A stretch of 10,501 nucleotides of DNA from a virus (lineage: Duplodnaviria; Heunggongvirae; Uroviricota; Caudoviricetes): positions 1 to 10,501 of the IMG/VR virus record IMGVR_UViG_2681813225_000023. One strand, 5' to 3'. Each line of letters opens with the position of its first letter. Positions within the stretch are counted from its first letter, which is position 1. The position numbers and the translations under genes were made by a program. The notes beneath the pieces were generated by a model, which saw only the letters and a program-made list of their open reading frames with translations, did not search any database and was not told where the DNA came from. Below, one piece after another: positions 1-10,501 of the stretch.

Positions 1-460
1 CCACGCCAGAGACGTGTTGCTGTGGCGACCGTCATCACTTCCGGTCAGCACGTCGTGCGTTTTCCCCTTGTTGTCAGTTACGCGGAGATAATCCCCGGAG
101 AAAGTCGACACACGGCTGTAAGCCATACCGCCTGACGCGGATGCGCCGCCACCAACAGCCCCGCCAATGGCGCTGCCGATACTCCCGACAATCCCCACCA
201 TTGCCTGCTTAAGCAGAATTTCTGTCATCATGGACAGCACGGAACCGGTGAAGCTACGCCAGTTCTGTTCACTGCCGGTCAGCATCGCCGCCATATTCTG
301 TGCAATACCATCAAAGGTCTGCGTGGCTGCACTTTTTACCTGCAACATACAGTCCGTGGCGCTCTCTTCCCACTCACTCCAGCCGGACTTCAGGCCTGCC
401 ATCCAGCTCCCGCGAAGCTGGTCTTCAGCCGCCCAGGTCTTTTTCTACTCTGACATGACG

Positions 461-480
<20 letters not shown>
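1..480 (-). pseudogene. H: Internal fragment of the tail tape-measure gene (lambda gpH-like); 5' two-thirds missing, in-frame TAG at 445-447, continues past window start
   Basis: Minus frame open from 444 to 1 (148 codons) reads KKTWAAEDQLRGSWMAGLKSGWSEWEESATD...AMVGIVGSIGSAIGGAVGGGASASGG..., which I recognise as the C-proximal part of lambda gpH. Codons 480-448 read NPLALNNVMSE in the same frame, then TAG. The frame is entered from a TGA at 481-483, so there is no start codon. Confidence 0.75.
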
Positions 481-3954
<3,474 letters not shown>

Positions 3955-3980
<26 letters not shown>

Positions 3981-4500
3981 TCAGCAACCCCGGTATCAGT
4001 TCATCCAGCGCGGCTGCTTTGTTCATGGCTTTGATGATATCCCGTTTCAGGAAATCAACATGTCGGTTTTCCAGTTCCGGAAAACGCCGCTGCACCGACA
4101 GGGGGATCCCGTCGAGAATACTGGCAATTTCACCTGCGATCCGCGACAGCACGAAAGTACAGAATGCGGTTTCCACCACTTCAGCGGAGTCTCTGGCATT
4201 TTTCAGCTCCTGTGCGTCGGCCTGCGCACGCGTAAGTCGATGGCGTTCGTACTCAATAGTCCCTGGCTGGAGATCTGTCTCGCTGGCCTGCCGCAGTTCT
4301 TCAACCTCCCGGCGCAGCTTTTCGTTCTCAATTTCAGCATCCCTTTCGGCATACCATTTTATGACGGCGGCAGAGTCATAAAGCACCTCATTACCCTTGC
4401 CACCGCCTCGCAGAACGGGCATTCCCTGTTCCTGCCAGTTCTGAATGGTACGGATACTCGAACCGAAAATGTCAGCCAGCTGCTTTTTGTTGACTTCCAT
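3955..4500 (-). CDS. Nu1: Terminase small subunit gpNu1, 181 aa, apparently intact
   Basis: 181-aa ORF MEVNKKQLADIFGSSIRTIQNWQEQGMPVLRGGGKGNEVLYDSAAVIKWYAERDAEIENEKL... matches lambda Nu1 in length and sequence. The N-terminal winged-HTH DNA-binding region is present. ATG at 4500-4498. Confidence 0.95.
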
Positions 4501-4677
4501 TGTTCATTCCACGGACAAAAACAGAGAAAGGAAACGACAGAGGCCAAAAAGCTCGCTTTCAGCACCTGTCGTTTCCTTTCTTTTTAGGGGGTATTTTAAA
4601 TAAAAACATTAAGTTACGACGAAGAAGAACGGAAACACCTTAAACCGGAAAATTTTCATAAATAGCGAAAACCCGCG
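4501..4677 (-). promoter_or_regulatory. cosB-like region (Nu1 R-sites and IHF site) between cosN and the Nu1 start
   Basis: The reverse complement of 4501-4689 reads GGGCGGCGACCTCGCGGGTTTTCGCTATTTATGAAAATTTTCCGG...GAAAGGAAACGACAGGTGCTGAAAGCGAGC...ATG(Nu1), which is the lambda left-end cos sequence with a few substitutions. Individual R1-R3 and I1 sites were not mapped. Confidence 0.65.
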
Positions 4678-4689
4678 AGGTCGCCGCCC
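4678..4689. other. cos: cosN: the 12-nt cohesive-end sequence of lambda
   Basis: AGGTCGCCGCCC on the plus strand is GGGCGGCGACCT on the minus strand. It sits 178 bp upstream of the Nu1 start in the lambda context (CGCGGGTTTTCGC follows). Confidence 0.85.
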
Positions 4690-4888
4690 CGTAACCTGTC
4701 GGATCGCCGGAAAGGACCCGCAAAATGATAATAATTATCATCTACATGTCACAACGTGCATCTACGCCATCAAACCACGTCAAATAATCAATTATGACGC
4801 AGGTATCGTATTAATTGATCCGCATCAACTTAACGTAAAAACAACTTCAGACAATACAAATCAGCGACACTGAATACGGGGCAACCTC

Positions 4889-5083
4889 ATGTCAACGAAG
4901 AACAGAACCCGCAGAACAACAACCCGCAACATCCGCTTTCCTAACCAAATGATTGAACAAATTAACATCGCTCTTGATCAAAAAGGGTCCGGAAATTTCT
5001 CAGCCTGGGTCATTGAAGCCTACCGTCGGAGGCTAACGTCAGAAAAGAGAGCATATACATCAATTAAAAGTGATGAAGAATGA
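4889..5083 (+). CDS. ylcI: Small YlcI-like protein, 64 aa, with a ribbon-helix-helix (Arc/CopG-like) pattern
   Basis: 64-aa ORF MSTKNRTRRTTTRNIRFPNQMIEQINIALDQKGSGNFSAWVIEAYRRRL... has a basic N-terminus, a short strand (RNIRFP), then helix-loop-helix, consistent with RHH DNA binders. Position (just outside cos) and length match the lambda/DLP12 ylcI-type ORF as I recall it. Confidence 0.55.
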   Translation: MSTKNRTRRTTTRNIRFPNQMIEQINIALDQKGSGNFSAWVIEAYRRRLTSEKRAYTSIKSDEE

Positions 5084-5247
5084 ACATCCCGCGTTCTTCC
5101 CTCCGAACAGGACGATATTGTAAATTCACTTAATTACGAGGGCATTGCAGTAATTGAGTTGCAGTTTTACCACTTTCCTGACAGTGACAGACTGCGTGTT
5201 GGCTCTGTCACAGGTTAAGTAGTTTGAATGATTAGCAGTTATGGTGA

Positions 5248-5454
5248 TCAGTCAACCACCAGGGAATAATCCTTCATATTATTATCGTGCTTCACCAACG
5301 CTGCCTCAATTGCCCTGAATGCTTCCAGAGACACCTTATGTTCTATACATGCAATTACAACATCAGGGTAACTCATAGAAATGGTGCTATTAAGCATATT
5401 TTTTACACGAATCAGATCCACGGAGGGATCATCAGCAGATTGTTCTTTATTCAT
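5248..5454 (-). CDS. ybcW: Small YbcW-like protein of unknown function, 68 aa
   Basis: 68-aa [74 protein letters not shown] at 5454 with GGAGCG about 7 nt upstream. Length and location match the DLP12/lambda ybcW-type ORF as I recall it. Confidence 0.55.
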
Positions 5455-5739
5455 TTTGTCGCTCCATGCGCTTGCTCTTCATCTAGCGGTTAAAATATTA
5501 CTTCAAATCTTTCTGTATGAAGATTTGAGCACGTTGGCCTTACATACATCTGTCGGTTGTATTTCCCTCCAGAATGCCAGCAGGACCGCACTTTGTTACG
5601 CAACCAATACTATTAATTGAAAACATTCCTAATATTTGACATAAATCATCAACAAAACACAAAGAGGTCAGACCAGACTGAAACGATAAAAACGATAATG
5701 CAAACTACGCGCCCTCGTATCACATGGAAGGTTTTACCA

Positions 5740-6150
5740 ATGGCTCAGGTTGCCATTTTTAAAGAAATATTCGATCAAGTGCGAAAAGATTTAAACTGTG
5801 AATTGTTTTATTCTGAACTAAAACGTCACAATGTCTCACATTATATTTACTATCTAGCCACAGATAATATTCACATTGTGTTAGAAAACGATAACACTGT
5901 GTTAATAAAAGGACTTAAAAAGGTTGTAAATGTTAAATTCTCAAGAAATACGCATCTTATAGAAACGTCCTATGATAGGTTGAAATCAAGAGAAATCACA
6001 TTTCAGCAATACAGGGAAAATCTTGCTAAAGCAGGAGTTTTCCGATGGGTTACAAATATCCACGAACATAAAAGATATTACTATGCCTTTGATAATTCAT
6101 TACTATTTACTGAGAGCATTCAGAACACTACACAAATCTTTCCACGCTAA
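5740..6150 (+). CDS. ybcV: YbcV-like (DUF1398-type) protein, 136 aa
   Basis: The track ORF 5617..6150 begins at a TTG. The ATG at 5740 has GGAAGG 8 nt upstream and gives 136 aa ([47 protein letters not shown]...), matching the length and position of ybcV-type genes next to bor. Confidence 0.65.
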
Positions 6151-6441
6151 ATCATAACGTCCGGTTTCTTCCGTGTCAGCACCGGGGCGTTGGCATAATG
6201 CAATACGTGTACGCGCTAAACCCTGTGTGCATCGTTATTAATTATTCCCGGACACTCCCGCAGAGGAGTTTCCCTGTCAGGGCTGCGGACATAGTTAATC
6301 CGGGAATACAGTGACGATCCTTCGCATCTGACATACATTAATAAATATTAACAATATGAGATTTCAACTCATTGTTTAGGGTTTGTTTAATTTTCTACAC
6401 ATACGATTCTGCGAACTTTAAAAAGCATCGGGAATAACACC

Positions 6442-6735
6442 ATGAAAAAAATGCTACTCGCTACTGCGCTGGCCCTGCTTATTACAGGATGTGCCCAACA
6501 GACGTTTACTGTTCAAAACAAACCGGCAGCAGTAACACCAAAGGAAACCATCACCCACCATTTCTTCGTCTCTGGAATTGGGCAGAAGAAAACTGTCGAT
6601 GCAGCCAAAATTTGTGGCGGCGCAGAAAATGTTGTTAAAACAGAAACCCAGCAAACATTCGTAAATGGATTGCTCGGTTTTATTACTTTAGGCATTTATA
6701 CTCCGCTGGAAGCGCGTGTGTATTGCTCACAATAA
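6442..6735 (+). CDS. bor: Bor outer-membrane lipoprotein (serum-resistance moron), 97 aa
   Basis: MKKMLLATALALLITGCAQQTFTVQNKPAAV... has a signal peptide with lipobox LITGC and is near-identical to recalled lambda Bor (97 aa). It is convergent with Rz, as in lambda. Confidence 0.93.
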   Translation: MKKMLLATALALLITGCAQQTFTVQNKPAAVTPKETITHHFFVSGIGQKKTVDAAKICGGAENVVKTETQQTFVNGLLGFITLGIYTPLEARVYCSQ

Positions 6736-6743
6736 TTGTATGA

Positions 6744-6765
6744 GTTGCCCATCGATATGGGCAAC
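6744..6765. terminator. Hairpin between convergent bor and Rz; candidate bidirectional terminator
   Basis: GTTGCCCAT-cgat-ATGGGCAAC is a perfect 9-bp stem with a 4-nt loop. It starts 9 nt after the bor stop and ends 1 nt before the Rz-frame stop (6767-6769). The flanking U-tracts are weak. Confidence 0.45.
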
Positions 6766-6766
6766 T

Positions 6767-7227
6767 CTATCTGCACTGCTCATTAATATACTTCTGGGTT
6801 CCTTCCAGTTGTTTTTGCATAGTGATCAGCCTCTCTCTGAGGGTGAAATAATCCCGTTCAGCGGTGTCTGCCAGTCGGGGGGAGGCTGCATTATCCACGC
6901 CGGAGGCGGTGGTGGCTTCACGCACTGACTGACAGACTGCTTTGATGTGCACCGACGACGACCAGCGGCAACATCATCACGCAGAGCATCATTTTCAGCT
7001 TTAGCATCAGCTAACTCCTTCGTGTATTTTGCATCGAGCGCAGCAACATCACGCTGACGCATCTGCATGTCAGTAATTGCCGCGTTCGCCAGCTTCAGTT
7101 CTCTGGCATTTTTGTCGCGCTGGGCCTTGTAGGTAATGGCGTTATCACGGTAATGATTAACAGCCCAAGACAGGCAGACGATGATGCAAATAACCAGAGC
7201 GGAGATAATCGCGGTTACTCTGCTCAT
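6767..7227 (-). pseudogene. Rz: Rz (inner-membrane spanin) gene with a 1-nt deletion frameshift near 6951
   Basis: From ATG 7227 the frame reads [45 protein letters not shown]...DDVAAGRRR (lambda Rz residues 1-92), then shifts into the Rz1 frame ([21 protein letters not shown]...). The true Rz C-terminus ([60 protein letters not shown]) is in another frame at 6950-6767. Confidence 0.85.
6826..7007 (-). pseudogene. Rz1: Rz1 (outer-membrane lipoprotein spanin) embedded in Rz, disrupted by the same 1-nt deletion
   Basis: ATG at 7007 follows AAGGAG and reads [19 protein letters not shown], then shifts at the lipobox Cys codon to [10 protein letters not shown]. The mature Rz1 sequence [41 protein letters not shown] continues in the Rz N-terminal frame down to 6826. 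Confidence 0.75.
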
Positions 7228-7700
7228 ACCTCAATCTCTCTGACCGTTCCGCCAGCTTCTTTGAATTTTGCAATCAGGCTGTCAGCCTTATGCTCGAACT
7301 GACCATAACCAGCGCCCGGCAGTGAAGCCCAGATATTGCTGCAACGGTCAATTGCCTGACGAATATCACCGCGATCAATCATCGGTAAAGCGCCACGTTC
7401 TTTAATCTGCTGCAATGCCACTGCGTCCTGGCTTTTGGGGGAGAAGTCTTTCAGGCCAAGCTGCTTACGGTAAGCATCCCACCAGCGTGAAAGAAGCTGA
7501 TAACGTCCGGCTGCTGTTGATTTGAGTTTGGGGTTTAGCGTGACAAGTTTGCGAGGGTGATCGGAGTAATCAGTAAATAGCTCTCCGCCTACAATGACGT
7601 CATAACCATGATTTCTGGTTTTCTGCCGTCCGTTATCCGTTCCTTCTGACCATGCCACCATATCGAGGAAAGCTTTACGCTGAGGATTAAGATTTTGCAT
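7224..7700 (-). CDS. R: Endolysin R (lambda-type lytic transglycosylase), 158 aa
   Basis: [61 protein letters not shown]... has the same length as lambda R and is near-identical except for the first ~15 residues. The catalytic Glu in WSEG is present. Stop overlaps the Rz ATG. Confidence 0.93.
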
Positions 7701-7992
7701 TTTTCACCCCTGTCAGTCGTTCCCAGAAGTATGTCAGTGCAACCGAACCCATCGCACCACTAATCCCCGCTGTCGCGAGAATCATGTAAATACTGAATCC
7801 ACTTTCGATACTGATCAGGCCACCAATAACACCGGTGAATCCCGACACCACTATCTGAGCCAAAGCATTTATCCAGCTCCACGTTGCTTTACTCTGCTTC
7901 ACATCTATCAGGTAGCGGACCAGACCGCCCCAACCTGCGATGATCAGCAAAACGAGCCAGAACGCTCCGGCAAGGCTCTCTTTTTCGTGCAT
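7687..7992 (-). CDS. S: Holin (class I, three predicted TMDs), non-lambda family; an in-frame TTG at 8004 lies 4 codons upstream
   Basis: The ORF lies immediately upstream of and overlaps R. The product MHEKESLAGAFWLVLLIIAGWGGLV...WINALAQIVVSGFTGVIGGLI...GFSIYMILATAGISGAMGSVAL...[11 protein letters not shown] has three hydrophobic segments and a charged C-terminal tail. It is unrelated to recalled lambda S. Confidence 0.75.
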   Translation of the reverse strand: MHEKESLAGAFWLVLLIIAGWGGLVRYLIDVKQSKATWSWINALAQIVVSGFTGVIGGLISIESGFSIYMILATAGISGAMGSVALTYFWERLTGVKNAKS

Positions 7993-8106
7993 ATGAATAG
8001 CCAATGTTTCGCCGCCGACAAAAGGCCGGGACGTTAAATGTCAGAAATCAGGCTCACGGGGTAATTTAACGACAAAGCACGGAGTTGATGCTCCCCGCAA
8101 GCCTGG

Positions 8107-8132
8107 AATAAAAAAGCCAGCATGTAGCTGGC
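8107..8132 (-). terminator. tR'-like intrinsic terminator between the Q-like gene and the holin
   Basis: On the minus strand GCCAGC-tacat-GCTGGC (6-bp stem) is followed directly by TTTTTTATT. It lies about 115 nt upstream of the holin start, matching the lambda pR'-tR' (6S RNA) layout. Confidence 0.6.
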
Positions 8133-8254
8133 AACAGAGGGTTAAGCAATATCAACTCAACAGCTGAAGACACCCTGGCTGGGGTACGTTGGAAGGATAC
8201 TCACCGCCCAGAAACAGAAAAGCCCAAGGCTTTAAACCTCGGGCTTGAATTTGG

Positions 8255-8283
8255 ATTACGGCCAGTGCGTACAACATTGGCAA
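8255..8283 (-). promoter_or_regulatory. Candidate late promoter (pR'-like) and probable Q-utilisation region
   Basis: On the minus strand TTGCCA (8283-8278), a 17-nt spacer, then CGTAAT (8260-8255). It sits about 30 bp downstream of the Q-like stop and about 120 nt upstream of the terminator. The -10 match is weak. Confidence 0.3.
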
Positions 8284-8313
8284 AATATCAGATTTACATA
8301 AAACATATGATTT

Positions 8314-8916
8314 TTAATCCAGTTTTGCAATATCTTGCTGTGAAAATGTGGTCTTTTGTTTTGAACGTGTTTTCGTTAAAAGCAATAAAGCTTGGCTATC
8401 AAGCTGTAGAAAAATGTGCTTCATTGCAACCCAGCGTTCAGTAAATGTCTCAGACCAGTTTTTTGATGTCACTCCCACCAGTGATGCCAACTCCTGGTAT
8501 TCATAGGTCTTACGCCCTGCCAGCTCGTTCTTCACATCCTGTGCCGCCAGCCAGATCAACTTCTTCAAACGTTCCAGTGTCTTACCTGCAATTTTCCTGG
8601 TACCCAACAGAGTCTTAAACTCGCTCCATGCCCACTGCGTTATGGTGACCTGATGTTCCCAGCGAACACTTTCGCTGTAACTCCACAGCAACCACGCTTT
8701 CTGATGTTCTTCGAGAGACAGAACCGCGCGGCGCCATGATGATGTTGAGAACTCGATCGGACTGACCAGGGCAATGGATGAGCCTTTCGCCCGTGACTGC
8801 TTACCGGGTATCGGCGGATTATCCAGCGTTATTAACCTGCCGGTCACTTCATCCAGAATGCGCGGTTTCTTTCGTTTGTATGTATGCTTGCCGACATGGG
8901 ACTTGTTCAATGACAC
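8314..8916 (-). CDS. Hypothetical protein in the position of late antiterminator Q; family not recognised; possibly 5'-truncated
   Basis: 200-codon ORF (VSLNKSHVGKHTYKRKKPRILDEVTGRL...YEYQELASLVGVTSKNWSETFTERWVAMKHIF...) directly upstream of the promoter-terminator-holin arrangement. It begins at GTG with no ATG and no clear SD; the frame is open upstream only to 8955. Confidence 0.35.
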   Translation of the reverse strand: MSLNKSHVGKHTYKRKKPRILDEVTGRLITLDNPPIPGKQSRAKGSSIALVSPIEFSTSSWRRAVLSLEEHQKAWLLWSYSESVRWEHQVTITQWAWSEFKTLLGTRKIAGKTLERLKKLIWLAAQDVKNELAGRKTYEYQELASLVGVTSKNWSETFTERWVAMKHIFLQLDSQALLLLTKTRSKQKTTFSQQDIAKLD

Positions 8917-9167
8917 CTCAGCAAGAAAACGCCCTTCGCAGTATTGCCCGTCAGGCTAATTATGAAATCAAAAAAGCCAGACAGCAGTTTCCGGATAAAA
9001 ACGTCGATGACATTTGCCGTAGCGTACTGAAGAAGCACCGCGAAACGGTAACGCTGATGGGATTCACACCGACTCATTTAAGCCTGGCGATATATCGGTC
9101 ACAAACTCCCTCAGCAGCTAAGAGGAGGACAAATGTCTCGACTAATCACTTTACAGGACTGGGCTAA
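8910..9167 (+). CDS. Small hypothetical protein upstream of xis, 85 aa from ATG 8910
   Basis: Track ORF 8778..9167; its first 44 codons run antisense through the Q-like 5' end, so the ATG at 8910 (MTPQQENALRSIARQANYEIKKARQQFPDKNVDDICRSVLKKHRETVTLMGF...) is more plausible. The 3' end overlaps the xis start by 35 nt. No family recognised. Confidence 0.35.
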   Translation: MTPQQENALRSIARQANYEIKKARQQFPDKNVDDICRSVLKKHRETVTLMGFTPTHLSLAIYRSQTPSAAKRRTNVSTNHFTGLG

Positions 9168-9369
9168 AGAAGAATTTGGGGACTTAGCACCAAGTGAGCG
9201 AGTTCTGAAAAAATACGCGCAAGGGAAAATGATGGCCCCACCCGCTATAAAAGTTGGTCGCTACTGGATGATTGACCGAAATTCCCGTTTTGTAGGAACG
9301 CTTGCAGAACCGCAACTCCCAATCAACGCAAACCCAAAACTCCAACGGATAATCGCTGATGGCTGCTAG
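9133..9369 (+). CDS. xis: Excisionase (lambda Xis-like), 78 aa
   Basis: MSRLITLQDWAKEEFGDLAPSERVLKKYAQGKMMAPPAIKVGRYWMIDRNSRFVG... shares the LTLQEW...PPP-K-GR motif pattern of lambda Xis. Strong SD AGAGGAGG 5 nt upstream. It overlaps the int start by 11 nt, as in the lambda xis-int arrangement. Confidence 0.8.
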   Translation: MSRLITLQDWAKEEFGDLAPSERVLKKYAQGKMMAPPAIKVGRYWMIDRNSRFVGTLAEPQLPINANPKLQRIIADGC

Positions 9370-10501
9370 ACCCCGATCTCACAAAATCTCTATACCCAAT
9401 TTATATTGCAAATTAGATAAGCGAACCGGAAAGGTATATTGGCAATACAAACATCCACTATCCGGTCGTTTTCATAGTTTAGGAACTGATGAGAATGAAG
9501 CAAAACAGGTTGCTACTGAAGCAAATACCATTATTGCTGAACAACGTACCCGACAAATATTAAGCGTCAATGAGCGTCTGGAAAGAATGAAAGGCAGGCG
9601 CTCAGACATTACGGTGACAGAATGGCTTGATAAATATATTTCTATCCAGGAGGACAGGCTGCAACATAATGAACTAAGACCCAACTCCTATTGGCAAAAA
9701 GGCAAACCCATTCGTCTCTTCCGTGAGCATTGTGGAATGCAACACCTCAAGGATATTACCGCACTTGATATTGCCGAAATAATTGATGCTGTAAAGGCTG
9801 AAGGTCATAACAGGATGGCGCAAGTCGTGAGAATGGTGTTGATCGACGTCTTCAAAGAAGCACAACACGCAGGACATGTTCCGCCAGGATTTAACCCAGC
9901 GCAGGCAACAAAACAACCGCGAAATCGAGTAAACCGCCAAAGATTATCACTGTCCGAATGGCAGGCAATATTTGACAGCGTAAGTAGACGGCAGCCCTAT
10001 TTAAAATGCGGGATGCTACTTGCTCTTGTCACTGGACAACGTTTAGGCGATATCTGCAATTTGAAATTCTCTGATATCTGGGACGACATGTTGCACATTA
10101 CTCAGGAAAAAACCGGTTCAAAACTTGCTATTCCGCTTAACCTGAAATGCGATGCTCTGAATATTACCCTTCGTGAAGTTATATCTCAGTGCAGGGATGC
10201 TGTTGTTAGTAAATATCTGGTCCATTACCGTCACACTACCTCTCAAGCAAACAGAGGAGACCAGGTGTCTGCAAATACTCTTACAACGGCTTTTAAAAAG
10301 GCCAGGGAAAAATGTGGCATAAAATGGGAGCAAGGAACTGCGCCCACATTTCATGAGCAGCGATCTCTGTCAGAACGGTTATATCGGGAACAGGGTCTGG
10401 ATACGCAAAAGTTGTTAGGTCATAAATCCAGAAAAATGACCGACCGATACAATGATGATCGTGGTAAAGACTGGATTATCGTAGATATCAAAACAGCATA
10501 G
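9359..10501 (+). CDS. int: Tyrosine integrase (lambda Int family), 380 aa, apparently intact
   Basis: MAARPRSHKISIPNLY...ALVTGQRLGDICNLKFSDI...TFHEQRSLSERLY...LLGHKSRKMTDRYNDDRGKDWIIVDIKTA aligns by eye with lambda Int (R, K, HxxR, H and Y catalytic positions present). The stop codon is the last three bases of the window. Confidence 0.93.
   Translation: MAARPRSHKISIPNLYCKLDKRTGKVYWQYKHPLSGRFHSLGTDENEAKQVATEANTIIAEQRTRQILSVNERLERMKGRRSDITVTEWLDKYISIQEDRLQHNELRPNSYWQKGKPIRLFREHCGMQHLKDITALDIAEIIDAVKAEGHNRMAQVVRMVLIDVFKEAQHAGHVPPGFNPAQATKQPRNRVNRQRLSLSEWQAIFDSVSRRQPYLKCGMLLALVTGQRLGDICNLKFSDIWDDMLHITQEKTGSKLAIPLNLKCDALNITLREVISQCRDAVVSKYLVHYRHTTSQANRGDQVSANTLTTAFKKAREKCGIKWEQGTAPTFHEQRSLSERLYREQGLDTQKLLGHKSRKMTDRYNDDRGKDWIIVDIKTA

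Follow-up and report, generated by a model that had tools for sequence, protein, structure and literature searches.

A base-precise portal-to-tape-measure deletion scar in a defective lambda-like prophage at the icd site of O177:H25 Escherichia coli

Most lambdoid prophages of E. coli O157 Sakai are defective, and all but Sp4 carry an intact terminase (Asadulghani et al. 2009, PMC2669165). Sakai Sp3 combines a defective portal gene and absent head genes with intact packaging genes, and trans-packaging among the defective O157 prophages has been reported (PMC2669165). The prophage analyzed here resembles the Sakai prophages, and Sp3 (PMC2669165) in particular: it is lambda-like, has a broken portal gene and no head genes, has kept the genes for terminase and lysis intact, and lacks repressor and replication genes. 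It differs in its O177:H25/O145:H25 host, in its location at the icd site, in the additional loss of the tail genes and in its lineage-specific breakpoints. A second point of reference is e14 of E. coli K-12, which likewise resides in icd, where the 3' end of the gene is duplicated (icdC, or icd' remnant), and contains chimeric ORFs that arose from internal deletions, among its chimeric pseudogenes being ymfN (oweE'-'aaaE), beeE and jayE. The late genes of e14 are not lambda-like, however, and it carries lit, mcrA and pin as cargo, whereas the late region of the prophage studied here is of the lambda type (cos-Nu1-A-W-B) and is accompanied by DLP12-like bor, ybcV, ybcW and nohD. Finally, deletions by short-homology illegitimate recombination in E. 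coli share with the junctions described below the seamless joins of 1-4 nt, the lack of a recombinase site and the loss of kilobases of sequence.

The stretch of DNA analyzed here, termed the window, comprises 10,501 nucleotides (positions 1 to 10,501 of IMG/VR record IMGVR_UViG_2681813225_000023). Its minus strand carries a lambda-type late region consisting of cos, Nu1, A, W and a broken B, with bor, the lysis genes, a truncated Q, xis and int located to the right of cos; an Rfam scan of the window gave nothing at gathering thresholds. The complete 2014C-3011 genome has the integrase gene directly adjoining icd and an icd' remnant about 26 kb off; the integrase is 60% identical to IntE, and the site is the one that e14 occupies in K-12. 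The element thus has the attributes of a cryptic prophage, namely integration at an att site with its own int and a duplicated target end, combined with loss of essential functions: repressor and replication genes are absent, Q is truncated, the portal gene is broken, and head and tail genes are gone. The features referred to below are as follows.

1-129, minus strand: 3' fragment of lom (Ail/Lom outer-membrane protein), 100% identical to phage Perceval lom from 19347
126-129, minus strand: second junction (H::lom), a 4-nt GGTA overlap, in frame, with about 6.6 kb lost, as seen when the parental sequences are compared side by side
126-480, minus strand: H' island, 355 bp of H, 98.0% identical to lambda and Perceval H and covering Tape_meas_lam_C
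445-447, minus strand: TAG nonsense codon at H codon 615 (CAG in lambda), on the O177:H25 branch only
461-463, minus strand: TAA closing the SAGAE tail after B codon 459, from reading of the sequence (ORF 461-868)
479-480, minus strand: first junction (B::H), a 2-nt AA microhomology without insertion, 8,140 bp lost
479-1855, minus strand: B' portal pseudogene, 98.1-98.7% identical to lambda-like portal genes, gap-free
917-919, minus strand: TAA nonsense codon at B codon 313 (E313*), GAA in lambda, Perceval and O157
1852-2058, minus strand: W (head-tail joining), an intact ORF of 68 aa
2055-3980, minus strand: A (terminase large subunit), open, 641 aa, with derived changes G49E, S192L and A622V
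3955-4500, minus strand: Nu1 (terminase small subunit; 'nohD' in PGAP), an intact ORF of 181 aa
4678-4689, minus strand: 12-nt cohesive-end sequence cosN, GGGCGGCGACCT, with lambda-like flanking cosQ and cosB
8314-8886, minus strand: Q' antiterminator pseudogene lacking about 40 N-terminal codons (PGAP 'missing N-terminus'); the alignment to intact O157 Q starts at position 20851 of locus L004
9089-9091, minus strand: third junction, a 736-bp deletion between xis and Q' with a 3-nt ATC overlap, O177:H25-specific, from the alignment with O145:H25

Direct reading of the sequence and BLAST searches against lambda, phage Perceval and an O157:H7 prophage placed the transition from portal gene B to tape-measure gene H at the same base each time, window 479-480 on the minus strand, in agreement with the sequence-only reading that had proposed a deletion junction at about 479-481. 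Window 479-1855 matches, on the minus strand, nt 1-1377 of a lambda-type B gene (codons 1-459 of 533; 98-98.7% identity, gap-free), and window 480-126 matches nt 1810-2164 of lambda H (lambda 12351-12705, codons 604-721 of 853; 98.0% identity, E = 1e-174); the E-values of the B and H matches rule out chance. When lambda (NC_001416) is read alongside, B can be tracked through position 4212 (codon 459, ...IDGLK) and H picks up at 12351 (codon 604, NPLALNN...). Megablast of the reverse complement of window 1-1900 against phage records gave gap-free matches of 98.4-98.7% to lambda-like portal genes, all of which end at query position 1422, corresponding to window 479. The B and H alignments share 2 nt, AA, at window 479-480, with zero inserted bases, so that the 1-2 nt of microhomology proposed earlier can be fixed at two. 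The segment absent between B and H amounts to 8,140 bp by the coordinates of both lambda and the O157:H7 prophage at the same site, and to 8,149 bp by those of Perceval; it comprises the 3' end of B, then C, Nu3, D, E, FI, FII, Z, U, V, G and T, and the first 603 codons (two thirds) of H, which bears out the anticipated loss of about 8 kb encompassing C through T and most of H. A longer breakpoint homology was also considered: MAFFT aligned a TATGGC(C/G)AT motif near both parental sites, but the join lies outside this motif, which was treated as coincidence. The B::H join is a real, base-precise deletion scar.

Beyond the junction, the B frame continues as ...IDGLK-SAGAE-TAA, an out-of-frame tail of five codons, while the H frame across the junction reads NPLALNNVMSE-TAG-KKTWAAEDQLRG, with the TAG at 445-447 taking the place of CAG (Q615) in lambda; both frames had been described in these terms before and were read directly here. 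Pfam assigned the two pieces of B to Phage_portal_2 (E = 3e-68 and 1e-24) and the H piece to Tape_meas_lam_C. B lies directly downstream of W and is not an intact frame of 533 codons, being interrupted by E313* and ending after codon 459. PGAP annotates it as 'internal stop; incomplete; missing C-terminus', the 'internal stop' appearing in both the O177:H25 and O145:H25 lineages. B is a pseudogene.

Alignment to lambda B and H was expected to break once near 480 and to resume in H. It does so, but it breaks a second time at 126-129, only 350 bp from the first junction, and what had been regarded as tape-measure sequence throughout window 1-480 is H in 126-480 and a 3' fragment of lom in 1-129. 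The H piece is therefore an island of 355 bp only, bounded by a second junction at positions 20872-20875 of locus L001, where the H and lom alignments overlap. Lost at this junction are the 3' end of H, then M, L, K, I and J, and the 5' part of lom; the fusion passes in frame from H codon 721 into the 3' end of lom, which extends about 119 nt outside the window on the left before reaching its natural stop (L001 21118-21120). In O145:H25, the chimeric ORF is uninterrupted and encodes 191 aa, with Tape_meas_lam_C followed by Ail_Lom (model positions 113-199 of 199; Pfam). RefSeq/PGAP names the H'-'lom ORF 'phage tail tape measure protein'; this CDS is an H'-'lom chimera and not a full H gene, as H is represented by codons 604-721 only, without continuity to the H stop and M, and lom begins at 126-129. 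The H island differs from lambda at seven positions, five of them non-synonymous (one being the nonsense codon) and two synonymous. Since O145:H25 strain CFSAN004176 shares the identical junctions but retains CAG at H codon 615, the TAG must have arisen after the deletion. The H::lom junction, B E313* and this post-deletion origin of the H nonsense codon had been overlooked in the sequence-only reading.

The latter had pointed to other genomes carrying this prophage as the place to look for the same junction, and it is indeed found there. With one probe spanning each junction, both junctions together were detected in 6 of 5,426 complete E. coli genomes, and separate evaluation of the two probes revealed no genome among the 5,426 that carries a single junction. 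Neither occurs in phage records, in GTDB species representatives or in JGI metagenomes, where the junction 39-mer had no match; this 39-mer, matched nowhere else, provides lineage-specific markers for the O177:H25/O145:H25 EHEC clade. Five of the carriers display the full lesion set of the window (2014C-3011, OkiPb01679, SMN013SH2, SMN152SH1 and SMN197SH3), the three SMN strains being bovine O177:H- isolates with fliC H25 (PMC5814490) whose chromosomes were assembled from PacBio plus Illumina data and verified against optical maps. The sixth is the O145:H25 strain CFSAN004176 (PMC5567499). An IS600 copy resides in the prophage int of CFSAN004176 (L007 3001-5410) and is absent from the O177:H25 genomes. 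At window position 6951 or thereabouts, in Rz (ORF 6826-7227), one T is missing relative to all five near-identical complete genomes; because the window differs by one base from all five O177-type genomes, it represents a seventh source. The missing T shifts the Rz frame (133 instead of 153 aa) and falls where Rz1 would be if positioned as in lambda. It reflects either further pseudogenization in the source strain or a sequencing error.

The prophage of O157:H7 strain PV15-279 (NZ_AP018488, locus L004) shows the region in its pre-deletion state. It occupies the same icd site with the same int-xis, is 97.9-98.8% identical, likewise lacks the early region and shares with the window prophage the order Q-S-R-Rz-bor-ybcV-ybcW-ylcI-Nu1-A-W-B, but differs in having kept full-length Q and B, C through H, M through J, and lom. 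Upstream of phoQ, PV15-279 also harbors a small integrative element (L004 1-10228) that is not found at that position in the window lineage; its products are two structural proteins (major capsid and head decoration), a small terminase, a RepA helicase, an Icd-like protein and an integrase, and it looks like a capsid-forming satellite (cf-PICI-like).

Two further strains, 2013C-4974 and OkiPb01713, have the same Q' truncation at 99.5-99.9% identity, together with other lesions in the late region. The Q' truncation junction is an older deletion that marks a common ancestral prophage. In 2013C-4974, gene A breaks off at nt 877 and continues as the end of L (3-nt overlap GTT; L008 28133-28135), and a second join leads from the start of J into lom (1-nt overlap T; L008 29583), with K and I kept; in OkiPb01713, according to the annotation only, bor is joined directly to a tfa remnant (L009 16504-16956) and cos and the terminase genes are gone. 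As these sister lesions differ, the common ancestor must have had a full late region that each lineage has eroded independently. The lom breakpoint in 2013C-4974 is located only 39 bp upstream of that in the window lineage, and an older shared J::lom deletion followed by a smaller H-to-lom' loss in the window lineage is thus possible. Prophage segments shared between the window-type locus L001 and L008 of 2013C-4974 are about 0.5% divergent, compared with about 0.1% for the flanking chromosome on the icd side. This excess suggests faster drift or recombination with co-resident prophages, the latter of which may blur a simple picture of vertical descent.

Within the clade, the order of events can be read from which lesions are shared. 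Common to O145:H25 and O177:H25 are both late-region junctions, B E313* and five of the seven differences of the H island from lambda, and these therefore predate the split of the two. Confined to the O177 branch are Q615* and R682G in H, G49E, S192L and A622V in A, and the 736-bp deletion, which takes out DUF4222 and TraR/DksA genes still present in O145:H25. The junction of this deletion falls inside ORF 8910-9167, which is probably a chimera created by the deletion; PGAP labels this ORF 'ZapA' (cell division protein), a designation that found no Pfam support and was rejected. Shared junctions, extra lesions in O177 and differing deletions in the sister strains together are the pattern of vertical inheritance with further lineage-specific decay.

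All five junctions of the prophage family that were mapped to the base are seamless, with overlaps of 1-4 nt (AA, GGTA, ATC, GTT and T), and at none of these five did we find an IS, an att remnant, an inverted repeat or a target-site duplication. They thus have the makeup of microhomology junctions: few shared nucleotides, seamless, and without an IS or recombinase site. Given the seamless B::H join with its 2-nt microhomology and the lack of an IS or recombinase remnant, RecA-independent illegitimate recombination is the most likely origin. A 2-nt overlap is weakly above what a random join would be expected to give, and the scar would not by itself betray the pathway. We conclude with high confidence that B::H is a fossil internal deletion of 8.14 kb, one step in the stepwise and apparently neutral decay of a defective lambdoid prophage at icd. 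An internal deletion would have joined B codon 459 out of frame to H codon 604, by way of replication slippage/template switching or microhomology-assisted end joining. The deletions would have become fixed without selective consequence, as the prophage was presumably dead already, with Q truncated and repressor and replication genes gone; both late junctions and B E313* became fixed prior to the divergence of O145:H25 and O177:H25, with vertical inheritance from then on. The B::H junction has no function of its own.

The alternative that fares best concerns the number of events: a stalled or broken replication fork might have switched template twice, from B to H and then on to lom, with a 355-bp patch of H copied in between, as one complex MMBIR/FoSTeS-like event. 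That the junctions always co-occur, no single-junction intermediate being present in 5,426 genomes, that the island is very short relative to the approximately 15 kb removed, and that microhomology is seen at both joins (2 and 4 nt) would all be in line with such an event. Two deletions that followed each other closely within a narrow lineage, however, would be expected to leave no intermediates either, the same prophage displays frequent independent deletions of a simple kind, and the sister lom breakpoint 39 bp away suggests that an older J::lom deletion may have come before the smaller H-to-lom' one, so that we consider the single event unlikely, albeit worth keeping in mind. Considerably less plausible still is that a mobile element or site-specific recombinase made the deletion, for instance by IS-mediated adjacent deletion. 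IS600, ISEc8 and IS3-family elements are active in or around the prophage in related strains, but no IS, inverted repeat or target-site duplication is associated with the base-mapped junctions, where parental sequence resumes directly with overlaps of 1-4 nt.

Returning to illegitimate recombination in a dead prophage as the preferred origin of the B::H scar, a related issue is the terminase. The sequence-only reading had regarded the retention of intact terminase next to a head-less remnant as unusual. This did not hold up: the Sakai prophages are alike in this respect, the sister lineages truncate or delete the terminase, the derived changes in A are all non-synonymous, and only about 7 substitutions separate A of O177 from that of O145:H25. 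The cos region (window 4600-4720) seems fully intact, cosN being that of lambda, with a few substitutions in cosQ and cosB. Gene A shows 6 non-synonymous and 33 synonymous differences from Perceval, compared with the 5 and 2 by which the H island differs from lambda (Fisher p = 0.005), and the non-synonymous excess in the H island would fit neutral drift after inactivation. In the window lineage, 3 of the 3 derived changes in A (G49E, S192L, A622V) are non-synonymous. With about 7 substitutions in A between O177 and O145:H25, a selection test is underpowered, and the polarized changes point to relaxed constraint rather than conservation; with so few substitutions after the two branches separated, chance would leave the frame open. 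The counts would likewise be too few to exclude weak selection on the terminase. Most likely, retention of the terminase is a matter of chance that is common in EHEC prophages, not of selection, and cos-Nu1-A-W is a part of the prophage that has not yet been hit.

It could be argued that cos-Nu1-A-W has been kept by selection as a working packaging module, akin to a satellite or gene-transfer system that uses heads from co-resident lambdoid prophages, with B::H as part of its streamlining. The cosN identical to lambda, the full-length open frames of Nu1, A and W, the many other lambdoid prophages in these strains (8-13 matching places per genome) and the trans-packaging reported for defective O157 prophages (PMC2669165) would be compatible with this idea. 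Yet packaging genes are not conserved across lineages, A being cut at nt 877 in 2013C-4974 and the whole cos-terminase region being lost in OkiPb01713; the derived substitutions in A are non-synonymous without exception, and the open frame is no more than the few substitutions since the split lead one to expect. Moreover, Q is truncated, the replication/regulatory module is gone, and no replication or regulator genes of the kind found in a phage satellite or PICI lie between xis and Q'. We therefore rate selection for such a module as highly improbable. Just as far-fetched would be that cos-Nu1-A-W might still work when trans-activated by co-resident lambdoid prophages, a milder departure from our reading being that both junctions stem from one double template-switch. 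If cos-Nu1-A-W did work, the terminase would cut the chromosomal cos and start to fill borrowed heads with neighboring chromosomal DNA (stf, catalase/ferritin genes, ompT side), and such packaging from a prophage cos would be a cos-type analogue of lateral transduction.

Weakest of all is the possibility, raised with the original proposal, that repeated lambdoid prophage sequence was collapsed during assembly into a false B-H join: the many near-identical lambdoid prophages per genome are a classic source of misassembly, but B and H share no homology that could drive a collapse, the identical junction is present in six complete genomes sequenced independently in different laboratories, with the window as a seventh source, and the three SMN assemblies carrying it are verified by optical maps, which leaves practically no room for this explanation.

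Taken as a deletion scar, then, B::H is a case of ordinary microhomology-mediated prophage decay in a dead lambda-like prophage of cattle-associated EHEC, a decay that PGAP had largely flagged already in the form of partial pseudogenes. It provides neither a new mechanism nor support for a special retention of terminase, and carries little weight beyond annotation, where the RefSeq 'tape measure' CDS is to be corrected to an H'-'lom chimera. With the sister strains and O157:H7 PV15-279 alongside for comparison, it forms part of a small natural series in which independent microhomology deletions erode one inherited prophage.
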